A stretch of DNA of 32,000 nucleotides from Thermosulfurimonas dismutans (GCF_001652585.1 NZ_LWLG01000008.1:1-32000), one strand, 5' to 3'. Positions 11,657 to 32,000 are shown, numbered from the stretch's first letter. Notes: generated from the sequence alone by a model not told the origin. A program made the numbers and translations.

Positions 11657-13198
11657 TTATGCTTTTGTCGAAGGTGAAAAACCGGCATAGAAAGTACGCA
11701 CTTTCTTTAAAACCTCTTTATAAGGGTAGTCGAGCCAGAGAACATCAAGCCCGTGCTGTTTAAAACTTTTCAAACTCTCAGGATCCTTTTCGGTAGAAAT
11801 TACCAGAAGTTTGAAATGTGGGGATACCTTAAAGATCTTTTCTAAGAGGGTTAGTTTCTTCTTGACATTGGTCTCAAAATAGTTTCGGCTCCATCCTTTG
11901 AGTTTGACTTCCGCCAGAAAAATCAGTTCTTCGCCTATGACGCCGATAACATCCACCTGATAGGATTTTCTTTCGGAGGGGCTTGGCACGGTGATCTGGC
12001 CTACTTTCATGCCGGGAGGGGCCTGGGCGGCCAGCGCCTTTCTCCAGAGAAATTCGTAAAGAGGACCCAGGTGTTCGTCCGAAAGTCGCTTTTCAATGCC
12101 CTGCCAGACCACCTCCGGCTCTCGCCAGGAAGATTCCTCAAGCTCGCTTCCGAATCTTCCCAGGAAACAGAGGAAGGGATCGGAGATACGCCAGAAGAAC
12201 TTTTTCTTCTTCAGATCCCTTTTAGAAAATTCCGGATCCGGTTCAACCACACCGAGGCGCTGAAGGAGGGAAAGATAAGGAGATAGGCTAGGAATACCGG
12301 TGGCCTCCCGCAGGGCCTCCTCCCGCAAAGGTTTCCTGGAGAGGGCCACCACAATAGCCTTGAGAATGCGCCCGGCTAAAGGTTCCTCCCTGAAGACCCG
12401 GTCGAATTCCTCCCGCAGGATCGGTTCTCTGGTAAAGATCCGCATAAGGGCTTTAGAGAAATCTCCCTCTTCGAATTCCAGAGCCGCGGACAGAACCTCC
12501 CAGTTGAAGGGCACCCCTCCGAGAAGGGCATAGAGATAGAATGTTTGCCAGCGGTGGTCTTTTACCCTTAGGTCCAGATCCAGGTATTCCGCAAGATAGT
12601 CCATAGCAAGGGGACGCAGAGCCAAAGAGGCGGTGCGTCTTCCAAAAAGCGGAGCAGCCGCATCCGAAAAAGCCTCCTGCATCATGGAGACCGAGGAACC
12701 CAGAAGGATGAACATTACCGGAGATTCCGAAAGACCTTCGTCCCATAGACGCTGAATAAAGGAATCGAAGGAAGGGTATTTTTGCTCCTCAAGGCGGGTT
12801 CTCTTAAGCAGCCTGGGGAACTCATCGAGGATGAAAACGAACTTTTGGCCGGTCTCCCGGGCCCTGGCTGTAGCGGCACGGATGAAACTTTCCAGAAGAT
12901 CCATCTCAGAAAAAGCGCTTTGGGAAAGGGTTAAATAGGGCTTAAGATTCGTTTCGGAGGCCAAGCGGTTGAAACTACGGAGAAGGGCGGCGAGATTCTG
13001 GGTGAGGGTGACCTCCTGAGCCTGGAAATAAAGAACTAAAGGTTTTCCCTGACCAAACTGGCGCACAAGTCGGGTTTTGCCTACACGCCTGCGTCCGTAG
13101 ATGGTTACCAGGCTTCCACCCGGACGCCGATACTCAAACTCCAACCGCTCAAGCTCTTCCTGCCGACCTACGAATTTTTTACGCACGGATGTTATCAT
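11657..13198 (-). CDS. AAA ATPase of the Arch_ATPase/DUF234 type
   Basis: 513 aa. FVGRQEELERL...VTIYGRRRVGKTRLV (Walker A) and FVFILDEFPRL (Walker B-like). The long C-terminal region is as in DUF234 proteins. Confidence 0.75.
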   Translation of the reverse strand: MITSVRKKFVGRQEELERLEFEYRRPGGSLVTIYGRRRVGKTRLVRQFGQGKPLVLYFQAQEVTLTQNLAALLRSFNRLASETNLKPYLTLSQSAFSEMDLLESFIRAATARARETGQKFVFILDEFPRLLKRTRLEEQKYPSFDSFIQRLWDEGLSESPVMFILLGSSVSMMQEAFSDAAAPLFGRRTASLALRPLAMDYLAEYLDLDLRVKDHRWQTFYLYALLGGVPFNWEVLSAALEFEEGDFSKALMRIFTREPILREEFDRVFREEPLAGRILKAIVVALSRKPLREEALREATGIPSLSPYLSLLQRLGVVEPDPEFSKRDLKKKKFFWRISDPFLCFLGRFGSELEESSWREPEVVWQGIEKRLSDEHLGPLYEFLWRKALAAQAPPGMKVGQITVPSPSERKSYQVDVIGVIGEELIFLAEVKLKGWSRNYFETNVKKKLTLLEKIFKVSPHFKLLVISTEKDPESLKSFKQHGLDVLWLDYPYKEVLKKVRTFYAGFSPSTKA

Positions 13199-13251
13199 AA
13201 AAATTTTATAGAAAATTTCAAGAACAAAAACTCACAGCAATTATGATCCTC

Positions 13252-13281
13252 GAAATAAAAAACCGGCCTTGCGCCCGCCGG
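13252..13281 (-). terminator. Possible intrinsic terminator after the sigma-54 activator gene
   Basis: On the minus strand the stem ccggc/gccgg (13263-13267 with 13277-13281) has a 9-nt loop and is followed by ttttttatttcg. The stem is short. Confidence 0.45.
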
Positions 13282-13293
13282 AAAGGTAAAAGT

Positions 13294-15057
13294 TTAGCTA
13301 GCCATTTTCTTTTTACAAAACTCTTTCAAATCCGTCAAAGTTTTTGATCTTTTATCTAGAATTTTGAGATTATTTAAACATGGCCATCTATCAGAGTATT
13401 TTTCTAAAAGTTCAAGAATTTCTTTGGCATATTTTTTAAAAATATTATCTATATACTGCGTAGTAACTCCCTGCTTTCCTCCTCTTTCCCTACGACAGTA
13501 CTTAGCCCATTCTTTGCGAGTAAGACAATAATTCTCTGTGCCTTCAGATAATTTTTGCTCTAAAGCTTTTTTGCAAGCTTCTTCTAGCCTATTTAAAATA
13601 TCTTGAACCCGAATATATTCATCGTTTTCATCAGTTTCTATCTCTTGAGACAAGCATTTTTCTATTTCATTTTCAGTACTTGATATACGGAGATTTAAAA
13701 TTGCCCAAACATGTTTTTTAGTAACTTCAGAAACATTGGAACAGTGAATAAATATATTTTCTATTATATCTTCAAGTTCTCTAATATTTCCGGGGAAATT
13801 ATAGTTCATTAAAAACTCTATCGCATCTTCAGAAATTTCTATATTTCTATTATATTGTTTTTGAAATTTATTCCTAAAAAAATCAATTAAAGAGAGAATA
13901 TCTTCTTTATGTTCTCTAAGTGGACTAATATTTATACGAGCTGGAAAACGGGCAAATAAGTCGTTTCTAAATTTACCACTTTTAATTAATTCTTCTATAT
14001 TTTTATTAGTAGCTGCTATTATCCTTACATCGACATTAATATATTCAGTACCGCCGACACGTCTAATTCTTTTTTCTTCTATAGCTTTTAATAACTTTGC
14101 TTGTACTTCTGGAGGCATTTCTGTTATTTCATCTAAAAATATTGTGCCCCCATTTGCTAATTCAAATATTCCTCTCTTCATCCTATCAGCTCCTGTAAAA
14201 GCCCCTTTTTCATGACCAAAAAGTTCACTTTCAAGAAGCTCTTTTGGAAGATTAGCACAATTTATATCCTTATAAGGTCCCTTTCTTCTAGAACTTAACT
14301 TATGAATAACTTCTGCGATTTTAGTCTTACCTGTACCAGTTTCTCCAGTAATCAAAATATTTACATCAGATTCTGCATATAATTGTATAATTTTAAAAAG
14401 ACTTTTCATATAATCTGAATTACCAATTAATCCATAGTCTTGGGGATTGTATCTTAATTTTATTCTATCGAACTCTAAAATTTTAGTTATTTCTATAAAT
14501 TTTTTAGCAGATTTTTTTGCTTGTAAAGCTTCTAAATAGTAAATTTTACTTTTAATAGCCCAAAAAAGTAAATTAAATAAAGAATTAGCATCTTTATGGT
14601 ATGGAGGCAAAATCCTTTCTGAATCTATCCCTTTATTTTCTAAGTTCGCATAAAAACGTTTAAGCCTACTAGAATCATAAAAATGCTTCGTAAACAAAGT
14701 TATCCAGGGCAAGCCCGGATAGGAGCCTTTAATTTTTTTAAATACTTCAGGCAATATTTTATCTTGTCCAGCATATTCTTCATCCGGCCCCCAATGATCA
14801 TCAATTAATACTAAATCAAACTTTTGATTTAATTTATTGTTTCTAATGACATCAATAATCCTATCTACTTGATCTTCATGTTCATCATTTAAAACAAAAG
14901 AAATAGAAACTCTTTTTCTTAAAACTTCAGAAATAGAGTGATTAACGTTAATTTCTAAAGAAAAATTCACATTCAAATATTCTCTACAAAAAGTTTCTAA
15001 AATACCATAAATACTACCAGGATTGTCATCCAAAATTAAAATTTTAAAATCAATCAT
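13294..15057 (-). CDS. Sigma-54-dependent transcriptional activator (NtrC-family bEBP) with a REC-like N-terminal domain
   Basis: 587 aa. AAA+ sigma-54 interaction domain: ILITGETGTGKTKIAEVIH, ESELFGHEKGAFTGA (GAFTGA loop), GGTIFLDEI, RIIAATN, FPGNIRELE. The N-terminus has ILILDDN...DLVLIDD (receiver-like, with an insertion). I recognise no canonical Fis-type HTH in the C-terminal ~140 aa. Confidence 0.9.
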   Translation of the reverse strand: MIDFKILILDDNPGSIYGILETFCREYLNVNFSLEINVNHSISEVLRKRVSISFVLNDEHEDQVDRIIDVIRNNKLNQKFDLVLIDDHWGPDEEYAGQDKILPEVFKKIKGSYPGLPWITLFTKHFYDSSRLKRFYANLENKGIDSERILPPYHKDANSLFNLLFWAIKSKIYYLEALQAKKSAKKFIEITKILEFDRIKLRYNPQDYGLIGNSDYMKSLFKIIQLYAESDVNILITGETGTGKTKIAEVIHKLSSRRKGPYKDINCANLPKELLESELFGHEKGAFTGADRMKRGIFELANGGTIFLDEITEMPPEVQAKLLKAIEEKRIRRVGGTEYINVDVRIIAATNKNIEELIKSGKFRNDLFARFPARINISPLREHKEDILSLIDFFRNKFQKQYNRNIEISEDAIEFLMNYNFPGNIRELEDIIENIFIHCSNVSEVTKKHVWAILNLRISSTENEIEKCLSQEIETDENDEYIRVQDILNRLEEACKKALEQKLSEGTENYCLTRKEWAKYCRRERGGKQGVTTQYIDNIFKKYAKEILELLEKYSDRWPCLNNLKILDKRSKTLTDLKEFCKKKMAS

Positions 15058-17246
15058 TTTATCTCCTCCATTTTTGCAATTTGAATTTCAGTAATAATTT
15101 TAGTATATTTACCATTATTAATTTTTTCACATCTCCATTTGGGTTGATCATAGTTACAAGCTCTAGCACATAATTTTAAAAATTCCGTTCCCAAATAATC
15201 ATCAGTCCCCTCCAATATAGCTTTTATTATTCTTTTTGTCTTTTCATAATCAAATCTCGAGTAATTCGAAACAATTAAAAACACTTTGTCATTATTTTTA
15301 AGAGATAAAGATATTTCAATATTGCCTTTTTCTATAGAATACTTTACAGCATTTAAGATAACTTCATATATTACACTAAAAAGATACTCTTCAGTATATA
15401 TTACATTTCCACATTTCTCTATATTCCAAAAAAAAGTAATTTTGGGTTTAACTTCAATATAATCTGCCACTCTTTCAATAGTTTTCTCTATTATGGTTTC
15501 TTGTAAAAAAAATTTAAATTCCTCCAATTTTTTAGAAGAAAAATTCAGTCGATTTCTCCTTCTACTATCAATAGCTGCCATAGCTAAGTTGCAAAAATTA
15601 GAAAGAAAATCCAATTTTTCTAAAACTTTTTCATACCTTTTATTTATAACATCTCCTTTTATTTTATTTATATACGTTGGCATTGCATGAGAAAAAATGG
15701 CAGAATGTCGAGAAACACTTAAATTATGAATCTCTAAAACATGGCTAACTTCTTTGTTAATATAATCAACTACTTTCTCTAACAAAACCTCCTCTTTAAA
15801 GGCACCATAATTAACTTGAGGTTTGCCAAAAAATGGATTTTCTTTAGCAATAATAGGCAAATTTCTATAATAAAGAACATCAATTTTTTTAGCTTTTTTA
15901 TTTTCTTCTATTCGAATTAATGGAAATGGATAAATTCTTGCTAACCATTTTAATTTTTTATTTGTTTCTTCTATAAATTCTGATACTAATTTAGAAGGTT
16001 CATTCAACTTTTCAATAAAAATATTACCTATTTGTAAAATATATTGATCTAAAGCTTTTAATCGTAATTTGGTAGCCACTACTGAGATGATATCACGATA
16101 AAAAGTGTAATTATATAGCCATCTATCTTGGCCAGAACTGAATGTAAATAATGCTAACCATGGGTGTCCTCCAACATGAATGGGTACATAATATATATAT
16201 CCAGAAGGATAGATACATCTTTCAACTTGTTGCCTACTTTTATCCATTTCAAAATTCTCTTTATAAGTGTCCCAAACTTTATCACTAGGTTCACGGCCAA
16301 ACTCAACAATTCCTGAACAAAAAACCAAATCCGCAATAGCTCTGGCGTTCTTACTTAAAGGTGCCTCTAAAACATCAACAATATTAGCACCATTTTTTAC
16401 TTTGCAGTTTTTTCTACATTTATTACATTTATGTTCCATCCAATCTTGAAGTATGTTTGCCTGGTTTTTTGATAATAAAATCTTGGCAGTATATGGAAAT
16501 ATGGTATATCTTAAGTTTTTATAACAAGCCATTCTAATTACACAAAAAATATTTCCTAACTCCGGCTTATCTTCTGAGTTAATTGATAAAAAATCTTGAA
16601 TATCTTGCCAACATTCATCAAGAATTACTCTTAGACCATCCGTACATTTATTAACGAACTTTATATCAAGATCTTCATCAATTTGTTTCTCATAATCATC
16701 AACTAATTTTGACATATATGGATCTTTTATCTCAGATTGAATTGCACTTAATAAAGAATTTAAAGTGCCTCTTTCAATGAAAAATAACTTAAATTGTGAG
16801 TCTTCAAAAAGTATTTCTAAACTTTCTGTTTTCTCCTTATCTACTGGCAAAAGCTCATTTTGCAATTCTGCTAAGTTGTCTCTGTTAGACTTTGCATTTT
16901 TTTTCTTTTCAAATTGTTTCAATTTTTGGCTATTTACTTTATGTATAGACAAATAAAAGCCAGAATCGGAAAGAAGCATTCTATGAGGGGGAGGAGTAAA
17001 ATTTTCTTTTATTAATCCGTATTTTTTGGTATAATAAAGATCGTTAAAAGAAGAAAATATACATCTATCTCCTTCCCAAAACATGAAAACCAGAGGATCA
17101 TCTTTTTTACTAGGTTGAAAATAAAGGTAAAGATAATCTAAAAAAGGATAAATTAAAACCTCTCTAGGTTTAGAAAATTTCAAAATACTACCAATAATCC
17201 CAGATCTAACAAGGGAATTTTTATCATAACTCCCTATCTTAATCAT
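15054..17246 (-). CDS. Cytoplasmic 730-aa protein with a degenerate GHKL/histidine-kinase-like C-terminus
   Basis: No TM segments are seen. N-box-like VIYEVILNAVKYSIEKGNIEISL and a possible H-box (SRHSAIFSHAMPTYINKI). No clear G1/G2 boxes. A 4-nt overlap with the bEBP gene suggests translational coupling. Confidence 0.45.
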   Translation of the reverse strand: MIKIGSYDKNSLVRSGIIGSILKFSKPREVLIYPFLDYLYLYFQPSKKDDPLVFMFWEGDRCIFSSFNDLYYTKKYGLIKENFTPPPHRMLLSDSGFYLSIHKVNSQKLKQFEKKKNAKSNRDNLAELQNELLPVDKEKTESLEILFEDSQFKLFFIERGTLNSLLSAIQSEIKDPYMSKLVDDYEKQIDEDLDIKFVNKCTDGLRVILDECWQDIQDFLSINSEDKPELGNIFCVIRMACYKNLRYTIFPYTAKILLSKNQANILQDWMEHKCNKCRKNCKVKNGANIVDVLEAPLSKNARAIADLVFCSGIVEFGREPSDKVWDTYKENFEMDKSRQQVERCIYPSGYIYYVPIHVGGHPWLALFTFSSGQDRWLYNYTFYRDIISVVATKLRLKALDQYILQIGNIFIEKLNEPSKLVSEFIEETNKKLKWLARIYPFPLIRIEENKKAKKIDVLYYRNLPIIAKENPFFGKPQVNYGAFKEEVLLEKVVDYINKEVSHVLEIHNLSVSRHSAIFSHAMPTYINKIKGDVINKRYEKVLEKLDFLSNFCNLAMAAIDSRRRNRLNFSSKKLEEFKFFLQETIIEKTIERVADYIEVKPKITFFWNIEKCGNVIYTEEYLFSVIYEVILNAVKYSIEKGNIEISLSLKNNDKVFLIVSNYSRFDYEKTKRIIKAILEGTDDYLGTEFLKLCARACNYDQPKWRCEKINNGKYTKIITEIQIAKMEEIK

Positions 17247-17253
17247 TTAAAAA

Positions 17254-17985
17254 TTACCTCCTATTCAACAAATTTGATAGATCTCCTATATCAAATTCTT
17301 CCTTTTTAAAATCTGAAATTATTTTTCCATGTGCCATAACAATAATTCTGTCTGCATATTTTTTAGCTAGATCCAAATCGTGTGTTACTTGCACGATAGT
17401 CTTTCCTTTATTATATAAACTTTTTATAAGCTCCATACATTTTTCTGCATTTTTTGGATCTAATGCTGCTAAAGGTTCATCAAGAAGAAAAATTTTTGCT
17501 GGACGAAGGTGGGCAATAGTAAGAGCTAACAATTGCCGTTCTCCGCCTGACAATGTTTTAGCCATTTGTTTGAGTTTATTGCCAAGGCCTAAAGGCTCTA
17601 ATAAAGCTAAATATTTTTCCTGTAATTGTTTTCTAGACAAACCTTTAGAGTTCCAATCTGCAACATAAAGGTTTTCGAATATAGTTAAAGATGCAGCTGT
17701 TCCCAATAAAGGATCCTGATGCACATAAAAAATACTATCAGAAATTTCTTTAACGGTCATTTGTTCTATTGGTTTATTATTAATAAAAATTCTACCACTA
17801 TACAAAAAAATTCTACCACTAATAGCTTTTAATAGTGTAGACTTACCAGAACCATTATGCCCAATAAGCATGATCCATTGAGCTGACGGAATAGACAAGT
17901 TGACACCATCAAGAGCCTTAATAGTTTGTCCCCATCGGTTATAAGAAACTTCCAAATTTTCGATATAAAGAATTGGATTGTCCAT
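17254..17985 (-). CDS. ABC transporter ATP-binding protein (COG1101-like)
   Basis: 243 aa. Walker A GHNGSGKST, signature LSGGERQ, Walker B IFLLDEP, H-loop VTHD. Confidence 0.9.
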   Translation of the reverse strand: MDNPILYIENLEVSYNRWGQTIKALDGVNLSIPSAQWIMLIGHNGSGKSTLLKAISGRIFLYSGRIFINNKPIEQMTVKEISDSIFYVHQDPLLGTAASLTIFENLYVADWNSKGLSRKQLQEKYLALLEPLGLGNKLKQMAKTLSGGERQLLALTIAHLRPAKIFLLDEPLAALDPKNAEKCMELIKSLYNKGKTIVQVTHDLDLAKKYADRIIVMAHGKIISDFKKEEFDIGDLSNLLNRR

Positions 17986-17987
17986 AA

Positions 17988-18881
17988 TTACATATCAGCA
18001 AACAATTCTGAATCTCGAGAGACACGCAGAATTACCACCATTAAAACAAGTAAAGCTGTCACTAGTTTTAAATCTGTAGGGGCCAGCCCAAATCTAACAG
18101 CATATGCAACCAAAAGTTGATATAAAATACTTCCAACAACAGCAGAAAGACAAACAAAATTATGGAAAGAAAAACACGATTCTGGTAAAACACGTTCTCC
18201 TATAGTCATCGCTGCTAGAGCCAAAATCAGGGTCCCTTGTCCCATACCTACATCAACGAATCCTTGATACATGGCAAGCAAGATACCAGAAAAGGCGGCT
18301 AGACAGTTCGTAAAAAACAATCCTATGATTAAACTAATAGAAACATTGATACCTAATGACCTAGCATATTCTGGATTAGATCCAGAAACTCGCAAACGAA
18401 GCCCAAATTTGGTAGACAAAAGATGAGATATAAAAATCAATCCAAAAACGACAAATAAAAAAAGGAAACCAATAATTCCAACATGGAAACCACAATATAA
18501 GTATCGATTCAGGTAATCAAGAAGAGTTTTTGTCTTCAAAAGGCTAATATTAGATGCTCCCATAAGTCTTAAGCTTAAAGAATAAATGATAGCTATCACA
18601 ATAATAGCGGCTAAAAATTTATTCAATTTAAATCGTGAGTGCAAAAGAGCAGTCAAAAATCCAGATAATCCGCCAGCTATGCTAGCCACAAAAATAGATA
18701 GACAGATATTAAAATTGGCTTTATACAAAGTTGCATAAACAGCGGCACCCAAGAGGAAAGAGCCTTCTATAGTTAAATCGGGAAAATTAAAAAGTCTAAA
18801 AGCTATTGCAAGAGATAGAACCACCCAGGAAAAAATCAAACCCATGATTAAACCAATATCTAAAGGAATCAACCAATTCAT
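17988..18881 (-). CDS. ABC transporter permease (COG4120-like)
   Basis: 297 aa, polytopic membrane protein. It sits between the binding-protein and ATPase genes with overlapping or abutting ends. Confidence 0.85.
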   Translation of the reverse strand: MNWLIPLDIGLIMGLIFSWVVLSLAIAFRLFNFPDLTIEGSFLLGAAVYATLYKANFNICLSIFVASIAGGLSGFLTALLHSRFKLNKFLAAIIVIAIIYSLSLRLMGASNISLLKTKTLLDYLNRYLYCGFHVGIIGFLFLFVVFGLIFISHLLSTKFGLRLRVSGSNPEYARSLGINVSISLIIGLFFTNCLAAFSGILLAMYQGFVDVGMGQGTLILALAAMTIGERVLPESCFSFHNFVCLSAVVGSILYQLLVAYAVRFGLAPTDLKLVTALLVLMVVILRVSRDSELFADM

Positions 18882-19864
18882 TTTTGAATTTCGTAGTAAA
18901 TTTTTTTAGCTTTCTTGATAATCTCTTTCGGAATCGAAACACCCATTAGTTCAGCAGCTTTTAAATTAAGGTAAATTTCAGAACCGCGAGCCACTACAAC
19001 AGGAATACATCGTTCCCCTCTTAAAACTCGAGCCACTAATTTACCTGTTTCTCTACCCAACTCAGGATATCCCACAGAAACGGCAGCTAATCCTCCCTTA
19101 GCTACCGTTCCACTGTCTCCAACATATAGAGGAATCTTGTGTTCTATAGCAACCTTTAAAGCAGCACCAACACCACTAATAACCGTATTATCGCTAGACA
19201 AAAATAAGGCATCAACTCTAGAAGCTAAATTTTGAGCTACTGGATACACTTCTGCAGTAGAACTAACCGCCCCTTCGAGCAGTTTAAACCCTAACTTAGG
19301 AGCATAATATCTTATTTTTTTGATACCATACTGCGAAGCAGCTTCACCGGGATTATAAAGAACACCTAGCACTTTAACCTTGGGAGTGATTTCTTTTATT
19401 AGTTTGAGTTGATCATAGTAAGGCCAAGCGTCACTAGTACCAGTAATCATCTTTTCACATTTATCTAATGATTTCACTAAACCTGCTCCCACAGGATCTG
19501 TAACCGCTGCAAAAACTACCGGACATCGTGCAACCTTGACTATAGCTTGAGACATAGGAGTTGTTACAGCTACTATTACATCCGGATTGAGGGCAGACAA
19601 TTCATTAGCAATATTGGCTGCCAATTGTATTTGTCCGTTCGCGTTTCTTATAATGTATTTTACATTTTTATTTTCTACAAAGCCTTCCATCTCGAGTTCT
19701 TTTTTAAGATTCTGGATAACTGCATCTAAAGCAGGATGCGACATTAATGTAGCAATTGCTATGAGTTTGTAATGTTTTTTTTGTTCTTTAATACTAAATT
19801 TGATAGTTAAAAGTGTAACTATTATTAGAAATATAATTATCAGAAAAACTATCTTTTTCCACAT
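18878..19864 (-). CDS. ABC transporter substrate-binding protein (COG2984/ABC_sub_bind-like), membrane-anchored
   Basis: 328 aa. N-terminal TM anchor, then periplasmic-binding-fold blocks (IAIATLMSHPALD, VIVAVTTPMSQA, VFAAVTDPVGAGLV, LGVLYNPGEAAS). Confidence 0.75.
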   Translation of the reverse strand: MWKKIVFLIIIFLIIVTLLTIKFSIKEQKKHYKLIAIATLMSHPALDAVIQNLKKELEMEGFVENKNVKYIIRNANGQIQLAANIANELSALNPDVIVAVTTPMSQAIVKVARCPVVFAAVTDPVGAGLVKSLDKCEKMITGTSDAWPYYDQLKLIKEITPKVKVLGVLYNPGEAASQYGIKKIRYYAPKLGFKLLEGAVSSTAEVYPVAQNLASRVDALFLSSDNTVISGVGAALKVAIEHKIPLYVGDSGTVAKGGLAAVSVGYPELGRETGKLVARVLRGERCIPVVVARGSEIYLNLKAAELMGVSIPKEIIKKAKKIYYEIQK

Positions 19865-19866
19865 TT

Positions 19867-21333
19867 TTACCCTCCTTTTCCCATTAATTCAGAAACAATA
19901 TAATCTCCATAATTAAAAACTTTAATCCCGGGCAGTCTAGAAATTTTTTTTAATGTATAAGAAATTGCCAAAATTTTGTCAGTTTGTAAATCAAATACTC
20001 TATCTTTTAGTCGTTTCTTATCCAATATCCCTATAGGAAGCCCTCCCGCTCCATGAGCAAAATGCTCTCCTAGCCAAGCAATTACTGGTTGATGGTCCAT
20101 TTCCCACTTAGTAAAGTATTCGAAAATATCCTCTGGAAACAAACCGTTTTTTAACTCTTGATAGAAAAGTGGAGTTCCAGGATAAATAACATGCAGTTGA
20201 GGGAAAATTGTTATAAATTTTCCTTTGTTAAGAGCCATATGTCCAATAGATTCTAATATACTAATAGTATTTTCAACATGATAGGTCGTTTCATTTGGCA
20301 ATCCAAACTGAAGATTTAAATAACATTCAATTTTACTATCCATCAAGTTGGGAATTACTTTTTCAAGCAAAACTTTTATATAATATTCAGGATTTTTGGT
20401 CTTATTCAAATAAATTAAATGATCAAAATTAAATGACTCAACCCCTATGTATACTGCTTCGCATCCAGCAGCTTCCAGCAGATCAACGATGTCTTCATGA
20501 ATTAAAGATTCTACTCGAGTCTGACAATCCCAAGTGAAATTCCTCTTCTTTTTAAGCTCTATAAGAGCTTTACATATATCCTTGGCTCTTTGCAAAGAAT
20601 GCACAAAGAAATTATCTTCAATAGCTATCCTTTTAAATCCCAATTTTAACAAACTTTCTATATCTCTTATAAATGCTTTTATGCTTTTAGAACGAATCTT
20701 GTTATTTCCAACAGCGCAAAAAGAACATTTATAAAAACAGCCTCTGGAAGATACATATGTAATATGATTGAATTTCCCCGGAGTTCCAATAGATTTATTT
20801 TTAAAAACAACAGGTATAGAATCTAATTCTTCTTGTGTCAATAAAGGTGGGGGAAAATTTTTATGGATTCTATTATTTCTTACATAAGCGATTCCGGGAA
20901 TTAGCTCTAATTTTGGATAATTTTGCAATAGATAATTTAACGATTTTTCTCCTTCTCCTATGATAATAACATCTACAATATCTCTGTGATATTTCAAAAT
21001 AGTTCCATAATCCGCAGTAGCATGAGGCCCCCCAAATATTATAACTGATTTTGGCAGGAATTTCTTAAAAGTTTTTGCCACAAATAATGCAGCTTGATAA
21101 GTAGCAGTAGTAGTAGTTATTCCTATAAAGGATAAGTTTGAACCATCTACATCATTTGAAATTTCAGAAATACGGTTTTCTACCTCACTAAAGGACATGC
21201 GACTAAAATCTAATAGATCTACTTCGACGTTTTTATTATTCAAAACAATATAATTAGCCAAACTAATCAAACCAAAAGAAAATCCATCAAGCAATCCTAA
21301 AAGAGGAGGTTGTACCAATATTAACTTTTTCAT
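19867..21333 (-). CDS. B12-binding-domain radical SAM protein (class B-like)
   Basis: 488 aa. N-terminal cobalamin-binding-domain-like region (FIGITTTTATY...IIFGGPHATA) and radical SAM CX3CX2C (SSRGCFYKCSFCAV). Confidence 0.85.
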   Translation of the reverse strand: MKKLILVQPPLLGLLDGFSFGLISLANYIVLNNKNVEVDLLDFSRMSFSEVENRISEISNDVDGSNLSFIGITTTTATYQAALFVAKTFKKFLPKSVIIFGGPHATADYGTILKYHRDIVDVIIIGEGEKSLNYLLQNYPKLELIPGIAYVRNNRIHKNFPPPLLTQEELDSIPVVFKNKSIGTPGKFNHITYVSSRGCFYKCSFCAVGNNKIRSKSIKAFIRDIESLLKLGFKRIAIEDNFFVHSLQRAKDICKALIELKKKRNFTWDCQTRVESLIHEDIVDLLEAAGCEAVYIGVESFNFDHLIYLNKTKNPEYYIKVLLEKVIPNLMDSKIECYLNLQFGLPNETTYHVENTISILESIGHMALNKGKFITIFPQLHVIYPGTPLFYQELKNGLFPEDIFEYFTKWEMDHQPVIAWLGEHFAHGAGGLPIGILDKKRLKDRVFDLQTDKILAISYTLKKISRLPGIKVFNYGDYIVSELMGKGG

Positions 21334-26630: not shown

Positions 26631-26975
26631 CTATCCTTTCTTCCCAAATTTCTTTCCAGCTCCATTGGACCTTACAAAGATTATTAAAGAAAAATCAAAA
26701 TCCTCTGGCAAACCGTCTCTGTCATCTGTAAAACCAGCTCTATATAAAAGAGCTTTTTCTATAGCTTTTCTTTCTTCTAACTTCTTTATCTCCGAATAAG
26801 GTAAGATTAAAGCGAGTTCTAAGAAATTTACTTTGTTTTTGGGATAATCGAGAGAAAGCATTATTTCACGATAAAGGGCCTCATCCGGCGGAGCGATTTT
26901 GAGAAGGTTTTTCATTCTTTGTTTTTTAAGTTCGAACCATTTTTCACCGAGGTGGTTTAAGTTTATGTATGACAT
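26631..26975 (-). CDS. Hypothetical 114-aa protein (possibly a DUF2851-like fragment)
   Basis: It starts 5 nt after the TIR gene stop. EALYREIMLSLDYPKNKVNFLELALILPYSEI resembles a block I associate with DUF2851 proteins, which are much longer. This is a low-confidence assignment. Confidence 0.5.
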   Translation of the reverse strand: MSYINLNHLGEKWFELKKQRMKNLLKIAPPDEALYREIMLSLDYPKNKVNFLELALILPYSEIKKLEERKAIEKALLYRAGFTDDRDGLPEDFDFSLIIFVRSNGAGKKFGKKG

Positions 26976-26980
26976 TTTGT

Positions 26981-29900
26981 TTAATTACACTTTTCACAAA
27001 CTTCTTTTACGAAAAAGGTTTCAGATTTAATATATTTTTCACATATATCTTTAGCTATCTTTTTAACTCCATCATCTTCAGTTTCACAAAGATATTTGAT
27101 AAATGCTTTTATTTTATCTTTTGGATATTCAAAAACTGGAGCTTTTAGCAAAATTTCACCTATGTTTTTAGCTGCTTGAATTCTGTCTCCAATTTCTATA
27201 AGTTTCTCAAGATAATCTAAAAAGAAAGAGAAAATTACAGGATCCTTTATAAATGGGACAGAAAATTTTAACCAGTTTTTATAAGGCTCAGTTAATTCTG
27301 GTAAAAATACTATTAGCTCTACAATATTAGATAAAATTTCTTTTTCTTTTTCTGAAAGATATTCCTCTCCTTTATCCTTTAGTTTATTATAAACAAACTG
27401 CCAAAAATCTAAAATTTTCTTTTTAATTTGCCTGTTTCTTTCATTGTCTTCTTTCAAGTAATCTCTTTGCCTCCAGAAAAACCATATAATTTTATTAATA
27501 TCTTCTGAATCAAACTTTTCTATAAGTTTATAAAATAAACTTGATGGCTCTAAACTTTCTAAATCAATAAGATATGCTAAAGATAGATGCTCAATAAGCT
27601 TTTCTTTAGAAAAATTATTCTTAAAATTATAATTCAAACTTATTTCATAATGTTTTTTCATAAGATCATAAACTTCATTATTAATACGTCCAATAGCAAA
27701 ATATCCTTCCATAAAAGCTTCCCAAATTTCTTCTCCTTCTTTTAGAGACTTAACAATTTCTATAGTAAAATCTTTATCTATATGGAAATAAAAATTCAAA
27801 AGATACATTCCAAATAATGTGTATGCTTCAACAACTGATTTTTTCAAAAGCTCTTCATATTTTTTTATAAAATTCTTTATTATAGATTCTTTCTTATCAG
27901 ATGAAGACCGAATCACTGTAAGAATAAATTTTATATAAGTTTCAATTACCCGACCTAATGGAGTATTCAAAGAATAAAAAATGTGGTCAGATATTTCTTG
28001 AGCTGGTTTTTCAATTTGTAATTTTTCCAATATTAAATGAATAAGTTGTTCCACCTTTTCAAAAAGTTCTTCTGGAATAGGATAAGTTTTATTTTGAAAT
28101 CCTTCAGTTATAAAAGAACAAAAAGCACTAATAACCCATGTATGTTTGGCAGAGAGTGATGATTCAACTATATATTTATCCTGCCAAAATTCATTCCTGT
28201 TGATATATTTTTTAATAAAATCTAAAATTCTTTTGTAATCTATAAATTTGCTTTCTTTTAAGGCCTCTGTTAGTCCTTCAAGAAGTCTTGTGATATACAA
28301 ATATCCTACATTAAGAAATGGTTCTAAATTTTGAGTAAATTTTTGAGGTTCAGTTTTTACAGCTGTTCTTAAATTGTCAGCAAGTGCTTCTACTGTAGGT
28401 CCCTCCCAAAAATCAGTAGTTTTAAACTCTATAAGATACTCAGCAAGGGTTATATTATCCCTTTCCAAAATTTCTTCTACACCAAGGGGAGACTTCCCCC
28501 AGCCGGTTTTAACTTCTACTTTTCCTATTGCAGGATGTAATTCTGCGTCTATTCCTGTTATTTTCTTCATTTCATCATATAAAACTTTAAATTTTTCATC
28601 ATAAGACAAAGCTTTATAAATCATCTGTTTAAAAATAGCTTTCCATTTTTCTCTTTCCTTTTCATCTTTGTCTTCTAACATTTCAATATATTTATCAGCT
28701 GCTATTTCAATTTTTTCTTTTAAAAGTTCTCTTTTATTATTATCTAACGGACCAAGATTTCCCAGAACCTTTTTAAGTTCATCTCCCCAAAAAAGAAAAG
28801 CTCCTTCAAAAATTTTATCTCCTTTATCGCTTTCAATGATTCTCCAGAAAACATCTTTAAACTTGTCTATATTTTGACCAACTACAAACAAAGCTATTTT
28901 AGTAAAAATTGGATAAGATTCTTTAAAGAATGATTCTAAAATTTGTTTTACATTTTGAGGATCTTTTTTAGTTTTAATAAGCAAAATTTTGCTCAAAATA
29001 TAGATAAATAACTCTACAGGTCTTTCCAATAAATAATTTGCTCCTTCATAATCATATAAAGAATTAAGTGTTCCTTCATATTCAGTTGAAACTAATTCTT
29101 TTATTCTTTTAACGAAGATACTTACAACTTTTATGGAGCATTTTTCGGCTATAATATTTAAATGCTTTTCAAAAAATTCTTTAAATAAGTAAATATCAAC
29201 TTTAAGAAACTTTTTTCCATATTCTTCTTTTATTTCAGTAAGGTGCCAAATAATTTGCTCTGCTTTTTGAATATCATATAGATTATCTTTAAGGAATTTT
29301 GGAAAAAGTTTCTCCATAATTTCTATTGCTTGAAGTTCAGTGCTAAATCTGGAATCAAGCCATACAGGTATTAGATTAATAATTTCTTTTGTGATCTTTT
29401 CATTAGGCAAGTTTGATATTATTCTGACAAAAGAACTCCAGATATGGTAATTATCCAATTTTTGTGTCTGTTTATGATATTCTGTTACTTCTTTGACAAT
29501 TCCTAAAAGTGCATCAATATACATTTCATTACCGGGTTCTTTTGCTTCTTGAGAAACTCGCTCTAAGTAATCCAATACATTCCAGTATGGAATTCTGTAA
29601 AATCCTTCTTTGTCAGCAGGTTCAGGACCAGGAGCTTTTTCAGGAGAGAAGAAGCCTTCTAATTTAAGAACATCAAACCATTCAATATCAAAACATTCAA
29701 TAGAAGTTAGTTTAGAAAAAAAGTATCTTTCATAAACAGAAGATTCTTTTAGCAAACTTAAAGCAATTTGAACTTCTTGTCTTGTAGGTTGTTCTTTTTT
29801 TTCTTCTTTTTGTAAAATAATATCTAAATGTTTAATGTTATCTAGCACCCTTTCCTGAAATTTTAATAAACTTTTTGCTTTTTCATGATTCAAAATACGT

Positions 29901-30301
29901 TCTATTAATTTCTGATACTCCTCTTCATCAATAATGACTCTAGTTTTAAAAAGAGCTGCTTTTAATGGAACTAGTATAGGAGGAACTTCCTCTTCTGAAA
30001 TTTCTAACCAGACAGGTAAAATTTTGCTTTTGTTTTGCGTAAGTCTGGTAAAAGCAATATCTATTTCCCTTTGAACCCATTCTTGCTTGATTGAATATTT
30101 AGATAATACAATTATAAAAAAATCAGCTTTTTGAGAGGCTTCATCTATTTTTCTAACAATTGAATCTCCAACTTTAATTTCCCAATCATCAACAAAAATT
30201 TCTGCTATACTCTTTAAATCTTCTTTCATTTTTTTTGTAAGCTCCCAAACAAAATCATGATCTTTAGAAGTATGAGATACAAATATATAAATTTTAGACA
30301 T
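26981..30301 (-). CDS. TIR-domain protein with a ~970-aa C-terminal helical-repeat region
   Basis: 1106 aa. N-terminal TIR: IYIFVSHTSKDHDFV..., FFIIVLSKYSIKQEWVQREI (Glu79 at the catalytic-Glu position), ILPVWL. The rest is K/E/I/L-rich helical sequence without a Walker A motif. A GGAGGA Shine-Dalgarno lies 8 nt upstream. Confidence 0.85.
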   Translation of the reverse strand: MSKIYIFVSHTSKDHDFVWELTKKMKEDLKSIAEIFVDDWEIKVGDSIVRKIDEASQKADFFIIVLSKYSIKQEWVQREIDIAFTRLTQNKSKILPVWLEISEEEVPPILVPLKAALFKTRVIIDEEEYQKLIERILNHEKAKSLLKFQERVLDNIKHLDIILQKEEKKEQPTRQEVQIALSLLKESSVYERYFFSKLTSIECFDIEWFDVLKLEGFFSPEKAPGPEPADKEGFYRIPYWNVLDYLERVSQEAKEPGNEMYIDALLGIVKEVTEYHKQTQKLDNYHIWSSFVRIISNLPNEKITKEIINLIPVWLDSRFSTELQAIEIMEKLFPKFLKDNLYDIQKAEQIIWHLTEIKEEYGKKFLKVDIYLFKEFFEKHLNIIAEKCSIKVVSIFVKRIKELVSTEYEGTLNSLYDYEGANYLLERPVELFIYILSKILLIKTKKDPQNVKQILESFFKESYPIFTKIALFVVGQNIDKFKDVFWRIIESDKGDKIFEGAFLFWGDELKKVLGNLGPLDNNKRELLKEKIEIAADKYIEMLEDKDEKEREKWKAIFKQMIYKALSYDEKFKVLYDEMKKITGIDAELHPAIGKVEVKTGWGKSPLGVEEILERDNITLAEYLIEFKTTDFWEGPTVEALADNLRTAVKTEPQKFTQNLEPFLNVGYLYITRLLEGLTEALKESKFIDYKRILDFIKKYINRNEFWQDKYIVESSLSAKHTWVISAFCSFITEGFQNKTYPIPEELFEKVEQLIHLILEKLQIEKPAQEISDHIFYSLNTPLGRVIETYIKFILTVIRSSSDKKESIIKNFIKKYEELLKKSVVEAYTLFGMYLLNFYFHIDKDFTIEIVKSLKEGEEIWEAFMEGYFAIGRINNEVYDLMKKHYEISLNYNFKNNFSKEKLIEHLSLAYLIDLESLEPSSLFYKLIEKFDSEDINKIIWFFWRQRDYLKEDNERNRQIKKKILDFWQFVYNKLKDKGEEYLSEKEKEILSNIVELIVFLPELTEPYKNWLKFSVPFIKDPVIFSFFLDYLEKLIEIGDRIQAAKNIGEILLKAPVFEYPKDKIKAFIKYLCETEDDGVKKIAKDICEKYIKSETFFVKEVCEKCN

Positions 30302-30333
30302 TTCTTTTATCCTCCATGAGTCTTATTTTACAG

Positions 30334-31200
30334 CTAATTAAAAGCTTTATCATAAATTTCAGAAAGCAATTTAATTAAGCTTGTTTTATCTTCTACTATA
30401 TATGGAATAGTTTTAAAATCTAATTCCAAAACATATCTAAAATACCTTATATTATTTTTAATATTTTCCTTGTTTTTTTCAGAAATCCCTGGTATCCAAA
30501 AAACTTTTTTTCTTTTTGCATCTTCATTAAAAAATTGTGAATATATCTCCATTTCGGTTAAACTATACCCTATATATACAAAAATCATATAATTGTTGAA
30601 AATTTTTTCCCAACATTCTCGAACTTTCCTAGGTGGATTATGATAAAATTTCGCGTAATCTTCTTCCGCAAATACCCATGATTCCGGTTTATCTATTCTT
30701 CCATGAAGATAAATAATTTTGGAGTTAATAGAACAATTTTCAATGGGAATTATACTTATATGATCATCTGATAAATTGAGAGTATTTTGCAAACCTTTAT
30801 CAATGTTAGTCGTGATTATTAAAATCTCTTGGTTTAAAAATTTTCCTATAATTTTAAATACTTCTTTATCTAACATATATTCAACTTCTTCAAAAACTTT
30901 CTTCATTGTATCTATGTATAAGTATTTATGACATCCTTTAAAGCACTGCATTTTTTGAGGAAATTTAAGATAGGGATCATCTAATAATCTCAAGATATGT
31001 GGCTCCACAACTCCTCTCCATATAAAAATTTCTTTTAATTTCATTATAAGCTCTTCCCACAAAGGATAACCTGCAATTTTTGAAACGCCCGCTCCTAACC
31101 AAAAGCAACATAGTTCTTTATTGCTTTTCAAATTTTCAATTAAAGTCTCTAAATGTATTTCTTCTTCTATAGAATATATAAACATCTTTTTTACACACAC
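30334..31200 (-). CDS. SIR2_2-family (SIR2-like) protein, single-domain
   Basis: 288 aa from a GTG start. Blocks: FWLGAGVSKIAGYPLWEEL, LIITTNIDKGL, IIYLHGRIDKPESWVFAEEDY, VYIGYSLTEMEI. Confidence 0.8.
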   Translation of the reverse strand: MCVKKMFIYSIEEEIHLETLIENLKSNKELCCFWLGAGVSKIAGYPLWEELIMKLKEIFIWRGVVEPHILRLLDDPYLKFPQKMQCFKGCHKYLYIDTMKKVFEEVEYMLDKEVFKIIGKFLNQEILIITTNIDKGLQNTLNLSDDHISIIPIENCSINSKIIYLHGRIDKPESWVFAEEDYAKFYHNPPRKVRECWEKIFNNYMIFVYIGYSLTEMEIYSQFFNEDAKRKKVFWIPGISEKNKENIKNNIRYFRYVLELDFKTIPYIVEDKTSLIKLLSEIYDKAFN

Positions 31201-31295: not shown

Positions 31296-32000
31296 TCAAA
31301 TAACTTTATTACACATCCCTTTCACAATTTCAAACCAATTTTTTATTTCTTCCCATGCATTGAGTTCTTCTAAATGACTTTTAGTAATTTTCTGTGCTAC
31401 TTTTCCACAAAGAAGTTTCTTGGCATCTTTTTCTTTTATCCCCTTCTTGTTTGCAACTAACTTTGGAATATCAGCATTATCCCAATCTGAAATATTTCCA
31501 AGAATAATATTAAGCTCAGTTTCAATAAGCTTCTGGGGAATATAATTCTCTATCTCTCTTTTTTTTGTCAAAAGCCCATTTGAACCATCTTTTCGCTGTT
31601 TTACTTTTTCTATTTCATTTTTGTATTTTTCATCTTCATCTCTATCATAAAGATGAAATTCAATTGCATTAGTATTTCTAAAAATGTGACGGTCAATATG
31701 ATTTTTTAGTTGACTACCTCCCATTATATTGAAAGCTAATACCCCCGAATTAATGTAAACACTCAAATCGATTATTTCTTTTAGTTCTGGAATATTTTGA
31801 TTAATATTTATCAAAAATTTTTCGTCAGTTTCTCCCTCAACACACCAAATAACTTTTCCAATAGTTGGCATAATTCCTAAATTTTGTATAATTTTACTAA
31901 GAATATTTTCATCAAAAATTGCAACACTTACAGAGTTATTTTCCTTTTCTATATATTTAATGCTATCAGTTGGAAGTAACCTTATAAAAGAAGGGCTGTG
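31296..32000 (-). CDS. OLD-family/TOPRIM nuclease, 5'-truncated by the window edge
   Basis: TOPRIM Glu (VIWCVEGETDEKFL), DxD (LYDRDEDE) and KREIENYIP. The reading frame stays open from the tracked Met (31871) up to position 32000, so the 191-aa ORF is probably the C-terminal domain of a longer ATPase-TOPRIM protein. Confidence 0.6.
   Translation of the reverse strand, partial: HSPSFIRLLPTDSIKYIEKENNSVSVAIFDENILSKIIQNLGIMPTIGKVIWCVEGETDEKFLININQNIPELKEIIDLSVYINSGVLAFNIMGGSQLKNHIDRHIFRNTNAIEFHLYDRDEDEKYKNEIEKVKQRKDGSNGLLTKKREIENYIPQKLIETELNIILGNISDWDNADIPKLVANKKGIKEKDAKKLLCGKVAQKITKSHLEELNAWEEIKNWFEIVKGMCNKVI

Follow-up and report, generated by a model that had tools for sequence, protein, structure and literature searches.

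A gene for a SIR2 protein and a gene for a large protein with an N-terminal TIR domain lie side by side in Thermosulfurimonas dismutans (GCF_001652585.1, NZ_LWLG01000008.1:1-32000; this whole stretch of 32,000 nucleotides is called the window below). Do the two genes belong to one anti-phage system, and is that system a new one? A first-pass annotation, made from the sequence alone, had ranked the pair as its top candidate for an undescribed defence system. Our results suggested a different answer. The pair is a real, rare and conserved variant within the family of defence-associated sirtuin 1 (DSR1), reportedly described by Gao in 2020 and by Garb in 2022, and not a wholly new defence system. 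We read it as a DSR1-family anti-phage module with a two-gene, two-NADase layout, in which one DSR1-type sensor would drive both enzymes, and we give this reading a probability of about 0.6.

Results

Domains of the large protein

The two open reading frames (ORFs) share the minus strand of the window in the ORF listing. The upstream gene (30334-31200) begins with GTG and encodes a stand-alone SIR2 NADase of 288 amino acids (aa), WP_068670425.1. The downstream TIR-sensor gene (26981-30301) encodes a protein of 1106 aa, WP_068670423.1. The intergenic spacer of 32 nt (30302-30333, minus strand), read from the sequence, contains a GGAGGA Shine-Dalgarno at 30310-30315, and the ATG of the TIR-sensor gene follows 8 nt downstream. 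Orientation, gap and GGAGGA were all as the first-pass annotation had described them. NCBI labels the products 'SIR2 family protein' and 'TIR domain-containing protein', and nothing further.

The TIR domain covers aa 1-125 of the large protein (29927-30301, minus strand). Pfam recognised it as TIR_2 over residues 6-131 (E=1.5e-19, 71 bits), and the ThsB_TIR profile scored 23.1 bits there. In phmmer, the domain matched PdTIR (3h16, E=2e-16), and TcpB/BtpA and AbTIR were matched too. Glu79 (codon 30065-30067) lies in WVQRE and aligns with the conserved W-x-x-x-E Glu (WPQKE/WPARE) of PdTIR and TcpB/BtpA, so a TIR of about 130 aa with Glu79 in EWVQRE had been correctly located. This Glu, which we take to be the catalytic residue of such TIRs, was invariant in 24 TIR-fused homologues with identity down to 26%. 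The TIR fold and the Glu of W-x-x-x-E, by which enzymatic bacterial TIR NADases of the TcpB/AbTIR type are recognised, were thus both found, and the TIR of the large protein is predicted to be a catalytically intact member of this type. Some TIRs of the TcpB/AbTIR type cyclise ADP-ribose (ADPR).

The C-terminal region of ~970 aa had been noticed as helical-repeat-like and treated as an unrecognised sensor. Its helical nature was supported by AlphaFold2 (AF2): the model of the large protein (predicted local distance difference test score, pLDDT, 87) contains an α/β TIR domain, a long helix at 126-164 and an all-helical solenoid, and the sensor part (~176-1106) is all-helical with pLDDT ~90. The region did not stay unrecognised, since the PADLOC Dsr1 model PDLC04166 matched residues 125-1106 with its positions 265-1225 of 1227 (E=1e-110). 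Because this match runs nearly end to end, we assign the helical region to the known DSR1 sensor, and the TIR occupies the place of DSR1's SIR2. The Dsr1/Avs7-type alpha-solenoid sensor itself corresponds to aa 176-1106 plus the stop codon (26981-29776, minus strand). An exhaustive HMMER search with the sensor only gave 1,591 representative homologues at E<1e-3, with representatives counted at 50% clustering. WP_068670423.1 belongs to a 90% protein-database cluster whose representative is a 52-aa fragment. The 1106-aa protein was for this reason missing from the homologue list at 100% identity, and clustering of this kind can hide large proteins in homologue searches.

Between the two domains lies a linker (aa 126-175; 29777-29926, minus strand). 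In the AF2 secondary structure, aa 126-164 form a single long helix, which is followed by a conserved 'HLDxIL...PTxxEV' junction ahead of the sensor. The same junction was found in PIN- and TIR-fused relatives and is typical of effector-fused forms; bare sensors start at about residue 170-180 of the large protein. The Walker A motif (G-x4-GK[ST]) was absent from both proteins, and neither Pfam nor PADLOC gave an NTPase match, in agreement with the earlier statement that the 1106-aa protein has no STAND/Walker A motif.

The function of this sensor has been studied elsewhere. According to the text of PMC13581612 (Nature 2026; preprint PMC12803255), the Dsr1 sensor is homologous to the TPR sensor of Avs7, the phage major capsid protein triggers EcDsr1 and SeAvs7, and the sensor is found fused to many effectors, including NADase, nuclease and kinase. 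The methods of that paper mention 'split proteins', and its text does not mention TIR among the effectors of the sensor. The preprint of Garb et al. describes DSR1 as a SIR2-sensor protein, with NAD+ depleted on infection. NAD+ depletion with defence, and the capsid trigger, have been reported for the DSR1 of Bacillus and E. coli.

The stand-alone SIR2 protein

On the 288-aa protein, Pfam found SIR2_2 (E=1.4e-12) as the sole family. The SIR2 blocks GAGVS (aa 36-40), TTNID (Asn132, codon 30805-30807), YLHGR (His166, codon 30703-30705) and GYSLTE (211) all stand at the positions named, which bears out the earlier view that the protein shows SIR2_2 blocks only. G36, G38, S40, Asn132 and His166 were invariant in 20 SIR2 homologues and in all locus partners. 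The AF2 model (pLDDT 91, predicted template modelling score 0.89) superposes over its whole chain on the SIR2 domains of DSR2, ThsA and KomC (query TM-score, TMq, 0.60-0.67). Because the SIR2 fold covers the whole chain, this protein has no signal-binding domain; the model is a catalytic domain alone, in which space for a SLOG, Macro or other ligand module is absent.

The SIR2s linked to TIR-sensors appear to be a divergent and fast-evolving offshoot of the DSR1 SIR2 lineage. Their scores on the Dsr1 model range from 0 to 88 bits, in contrast to 262-288 bits for the SIR2s which accompany bare sensors. In the SIR2 tree, a single clade unites the nine closest TIR-linked SIR2s, and the more distant SIR2 of locus L047 lies outside it, beside the partner of a bare sensor. 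Dsr1 was the best PADLOC match for the SIR2s P0061, P0073, P0060 and that of L047 (55-88 bits). An origin of the TIR-linked SIR2s from an unrelated SIR2 lineage was rejected, since several members of the clade have Dsr1 as their best PADLOC match. A Rosetta-stone search with the SIR2 profile found no single-chain SIR2-TIR fusion among its best 120 matches.

Conservation of the pairing

Fifty related loci and the window were scored with hidden Markov models (HMMs) for SIR2, TIR, sensor and alternative domains, and the P0001/P0057 pair, which lies on one 7-kb contig, was added. A SIR2 gene was found directly upstream, on the same strand, in 12 of the 15 loci with a TIR-fused sensor. This number includes L050 (P0073), which was obtained by the reverse search from the SIR2 side and whose SIR2 is 32% identical to that of the window. 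For bare or SIR2-fused sensors with upstream DNA available, SIR2 was present in all ~24 loci, either encoded on its own upstream or fused within the sensor ORF. For the sensors fused to a HEPN-like domain, an upstream SIR2 was present in none (0/5 loci).

In the TIR-sensor loci with SIR2, there is either an overlap of 4-11 nt between the genes or a gap of 6-32 nt. Across the loci homologous to that of the window, the overlaps are again 4-11 nt and the gaps 1-6 nt, which points to co-translation of the two genes. All 12 TIR-linked SIR2 partners are intact ORFs, with sensor identities from 94% to ~25%. The hosts of the paired loci are Thermodesulfobacteriota, Thermosipho and a metagenome-assembled genome (MAG) labelled Deltaproteobacteria. 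The flanking genes vary by locus (BrxL; Metallophos and AAA_23; PLD-SNF2 helicase/MmeI-like methylases; an ion channel; RES and AAA). Because the pairing is kept in 12 of 15 loci, in differing phyla and in differing flanking contexts, it is conserved and not accidental. The co-occurrence across genomes which the first-pass annotation had asked about was therefore found, and its claim of a genuine SIR2 and TIR-large-protein pair in a defence island stands. We regard the two genes as co-transcribed.

The pairing is not universal. No SIR2 was found within ±4 kb of three distant TIR-sensors (P0035, P0042 and P0028), so the TIR can be the sole effector.

Two further loci deserve a remark. In L036 (3992-4642), the SIR2 upstream of a bare sensor looks degraded, with two short HMM fragments and LHA instead of LHG. 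In L047 (7529-10212), a 376-aa protein with a faint RES match and an AAA_15/AAA_21 ATPase lie directly downstream of SIR2 and TIR-sensor; these RES and AAA genes may provide the island with a third module directed at NAD+.

Architectures of related sensors

The architecture census covered 192 close relatives which contain the anchor region. More than one effector was found at the N-terminus: 117 of the relatives are bare sensors, 43 are fused to TIR, 12 to SIR2 and 12 to PIN_12 (E=4.5e-20), and 8 carry a ~160-aa N-terminal 'HEPN-like' domain, so named for its Rx4H motif only. In PADLOC, the SIR2-fused P0103, P0092 and P0212 are full-length DSR1 (model positions 5-1225). The bare sensor P0007 spans positions 308-1222 of the Dsr1 model and its upstream SIR2 spans positions 2-301 (E=2e-78); to judge by these profile matches, the two genes are a true split DSR1. 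The description of DSR1 as a fusion of sensor and SIR2 holds for part of the family and fails for the split, bare-sensor forms.

In a neighbour-joining tree of the sensors, the N-terminal classes were thoroughly interleaved. The sensor of the window is 73% identical to that of the bare P0005 and 66% identical to that of the HEPN-like P0006. The HEPN-like N-termini (aa 1-160 of P0006, P0011, P0022, P0050 and P0079) share the conserved 'AREIExGIRD' and 'HRFAHRHG' (Rx4H). This domain stands where TIR would on very similar sensors (loci L005, L016, L019, L039 and L045). The ~160-aa domain had no Pfam match, and it may be the HEPN-like RNase mentioned in the text of PMC13581612. Split and fused DSR1 of this clade are also held by archaeal MAGs (L013, Acidilobaceae archaeon; L015, Methanothrix harundinacea).

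Natural exchange of effector genes

Two loci show what is exchanged at one site. L001 carries SIR2 and a TIR-sensor, L004 carries a DSR1-type SIR2 and a bare sensor, and the two are allelic effector cassettes. Their DNA is 95.5% identical up to the SIR2 start codon; similarity resumes near codon 206 of the sensor gene, with 98.3% identity from there on. The effector blocks between (L001:5022-6616 and L004:4985-6124) have no alignable DNA. Because the two loci are near-identical around an unalignable block, SIR2, TIR and linker must have been swapped as one effector cassette. A simple insertion of TIR into a split DSR1 was rejected, since this comparison shows that SIR2, TIR and linker were exchanged together. 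A third cassette, with the HEPN-like domain, was found at L019, where the sensor is 86% identical in DNA.

The SIR2 gene can also be exchanged alone. The metagenomic loci L023 and L024 share ~96% DNA identity over 2.9 kb upstream and 3.4 kb downstream, with 96% for TIR and 94% for the sensor. Their SIR2 bodies (L023:4085-4970 and L024:4100-4990) share 43-79% identity in DNA and 44% in protein. This contrast between the SIR2 body and its flanks shows that replacement was limited to the SIR2 gene. This allelic replacement suggests diversifying selection on the SIR2 subunit.

The three parts of the system have evolved at unequal rates. Identity to the window was 62-89% for TIR, 43-76% for the sensor and 34-40% for SIR2, with one exception at 77%. 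Within the TIR-linked SIR2 clade, conservation is confined to the NAD-binding and catalytic blocks. From this pattern, SIR2 looks like an enzyme that is kept active while its surface diversifies.

Genomic surroundings

The GC content is 25-29% over 27-32 kb and 41-47% in the neighbouring 23-27 kb, so the strong AT-richness seen at first holds. A 114-aa ORF (26631-26975, minus strand) begins 5 nt past the sensor stop. It corresponds to the N-terminal part of a DUF2851-like gene and is truncated where the GC content jumps; the intact homologue in L028, also downstream of a sensor, has ~247 aa and matches Pfam DUF2851 (E=2e-10). Homologues follow several sensors and are absent from more distant loci. 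The ORF was considered as a third gene of the system and was rejected, as it is truncated and stands beside the closest relatives only; it lies outside the system and is carried along with the island. The truncation point (~26.65 kb) is the boundary of a horizontally acquired island.

The pair is flanked by two large serine recombinases and a truncated PIN/RHH pair, which agrees with the defence-island context proposed before. Other elements of that proposal fared less well. The upstream neighbour (31296-32000, minus strand) reaches the end of the window with its ORF still open. Its motifs VEGETD ... YDRDEDE are TOPRIM-like (E...DxD-like), and its only Pfam match, to DUF4276, is below threshold (E=8e-4); we take it for the probable C-terminal end of an OLD/PARIS-like nuclease which extends past the window. 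The tRNA fragment was not recovered, since ARAGORN and Rfam found no tRNA or tRNA fragment in the window. Promoter and terminator scans gave signals at or below shuffle expectation.

A second low-GC stretch lies at 13-21 kb (GC 25-36%), with other PADLOC candidate matches on the minus strand (11657-21333), next to an ABC transporter operon. One of the matched proteins is PDC-S27-like (11657-13198, E=1e-34), another is sigma54-activator/RtcR-like (13294-15057, E=1e-91), and the third, a B12-binding radical-SAM protein, matches PDC-M51A (19867-21333, E=1e-15).

Discussion

A contact-activated complex of two NADases, one of the two options raised by the first-pass annotation, is the best reading of these results. 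In such a complex, a phage structural protein would bind the solenoid sensor; the candidate, taken by analogy from EcDsr1 and SeAvs7, is the major capsid protein. A conformational or oligomeric change would then juxtapose the TIR domains and lead to NAD+ cleavage. The same event would activate the SIR2 subunit, which would be bound by non-covalent contacts near the N-terminus of the sensor protein; we propose this activation together with the sensor because relatives carry SIR2 covalently at the same sensor end. If both enzymes fire, the NAD+ collapse would halt phage replication.

Several points weigh against this reading. The SIR2 of the window has no match to the Dsr1 model at E<0.1. The faster divergence of SIR2 than of TIR could mean relaxed constraint. 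Foldseek against the PDB with the sensor model returned generic HEAT/ARM solenoids alone, which give no independent structural confirmation of the family, and the family assignment of the sensor thus comes from sequence profiles. What points to contact between SIR2 and sensor is the gene linkage and the fused relatives. Dsr1 is without the STAND NTPase which oligomerises Avs7, and a TIR domain needs self-association for its activation. In addition, the trigger in this thermophile clade is assigned by analogy.

Why would one sensor drive two NADases? Phage NARP1 rebuilds NAD+ from ADPR and nicotinamide and overcomes DSR1. A second NADase with other products, or with other inhibitors, is an attractive idea for how the host may counter such phages. 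We extend this idea only tentatively, and the extension is rather doubtful: the NAD-processing unit on a capsid sensor would be an obligate heteromer of SIR2 and TIR, with complementary and not redundant chemistries, and SIR2 would be the hypervariable, recombination-swapped target of phage NADase inhibitors. For example, TIR might make cyclic ADPR isomers beyond NARP1-type recycling and SIR2 might make ADPR. Alternatively, the TIR product might feed or gate the SIR2 active site.

The same data have to be weighed for other explanations. The rapid divergence of SIR2 relative to TIR and sensor, the solo TIR-sensors that lost SIR2, and the SIR2-only swap between L023 and L024, a pattern expected of a phage-antagonist target, would also fit an effector replacement caught midway or the demotion of one enzyme. 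TIR would then do the work, and SIR2 would be redundant, have a regulatory role or act as a decoy for phage inhibitors; in reverse, TIR would be an assembly scaffold only. However, both enzymes have kept their catalytic and NAD-binding residues without exception, and 12 of 12 SIR2 partners are intact across deep divergence. A decaying gene would lose such residues, as happened in L036; we regard this explanation as unlikely. Thoeris-like signalling in one operon, in which the sensor-activated TIR makes a cyclic ADPR-type signal that turns on the SIR2 NADase, is a quite improbable explanation in our view. In its favour, Thoeris too relies on one TIR and one SIR2 enzyme, the TIR here belongs to the TcpB/AbTIR type, both genes are inherited as one cassette, and the SIR2 weakly matches ThsA models (E=3.6e-7). 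Against it, the 288-aa SIR2 is all catalytic domain and has no ligand module; moreover, its relatives serve TIR-less sensors (split and fused DSR1), and TIR-sensors exist without any SIR2. The first-pass annotation had already set the pair apart from Thoeris for the missing SLOG/Macro and for a TIR protein unlike the small ThsB, and this distinction is upheld.

Its proposal of an undescribed defence system, unrelated to the named ones, is very unlikely to be right. The generic NCBI annotation leaves room for it, and our literature search gave no paper on a SIR2 and TIR-sensor pair, although the figure and tables of PMC13581612, which were outside this search, could contain the pair. But the sensor matches the Dsr1 profile, fused and split DSR1 occur in the same clade with identities up to 73%, and several TIR-linked SIR2s have Dsr1 as best match, which places the pair as a variant inside the DSR1 family and in practice refutes the proposal. 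A known sensor in the C-terminal region had been named by the first-pass annotation itself as grounds for refutation, and such a sensor is what the Dsr1 profile identified. We find it hardly credible that two independent defence genes are merely adjacent. Defence islands do pack unrelated systems, and solo TIR-sensors as well as solo SIR2 proteins exist. Against a chance neighbourhood stand the same order, orientation and overlapping stop/start codons in 12 loci with unrelated flanks in different phyla, and the movement of SIR2 and TIR en bloc.

If the two-NADase reading within the DSR1 family is right, a DSR1 sensor can use an effector subunit that comes from a gene of its own, and can combine two NADase folds at once. 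An unannotated thermophile gene pair is now placed in this family. The natural swaps are ready-made chimeras, with SIR2 and TIR versus SIR2 alone on 98%-identical sensors, and with SIR2 alone exchanged between 96%-identical flanks. Annotation pipelines would label the TIR-sensor as 'DSR1' and overlook the absent SIR2, or they would miss the partner SIR2.

Relation to known systems

Type I Thoeris (ThsA SIR2-SLOG with ThsB TIR) likewise joins the genes of a TIR protein and of a SIR2 NADase in a single operon, and the SIR2 fold of the window is near that of ThsA. In contrast, the SIR2 here carries no SLOG/Macro, the TIR is fused to a ~930-aa sensor instead of forming a small ThsB, and the SIR2 family also serves TIR-less sensors. 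The short-Argonaute systems SPARTA/SPARSA offer a precedent in which TIR and SIR2 can stand in for each other as the NADase effector of a shared sensing scaffold; there, however, TIR or SIR2 is used and never both, and the sensor is a guide-loaded Argonaute. DSR2 shares an N-terminal-type SIR2 NADase and a large helical sensor which binds a phage structural protein, and it gives the best structural matches of the SIR2 model. Its sensor, however, shows no sequence relationship to the present one; DSR2 consists of one polypeptide chain, lacks TIR and responds to the tail tube protein.

Avs7 is like the present system in its TPR-like bilobed sensor, its recognition of the major capsid protein and its many alternative N-terminal effectors, as given in the text of PMC13581612. 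The difference is that a STAND NTPase drives tetramerisation of Avs7, whereas the large protein here has neither Walker A nor NTPase. DSR1 itself shares the homologous C-terminal sensor, the lack of a STAND NTPase and the defence-island location, and in both systems a SIR2 NADase with intact Asn/His and GxGxS belongs to the system. The presumed output, NAD+ depletion on sensing a phage protein, would by analogy be the same. Unlike in DSR1, the SIR2 is a separate upstream gene, the N-terminal effector place is taken by TIR, the SIR2 of the window is so diverged that the Dsr1 model gives no match, and the pair contains two NADase folds.

Split DSR1 (L004, L008, L010, L020 and others) is without TIR, and its SIR2 scores far higher on the Dsr1 model than the TIR-linked SIR2s do. 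In conclusion, split DSR1 and the present pair have the two-gene order, the overlapping genes and the same sensor in common, and in split DSR1 the SIR2 is always present.

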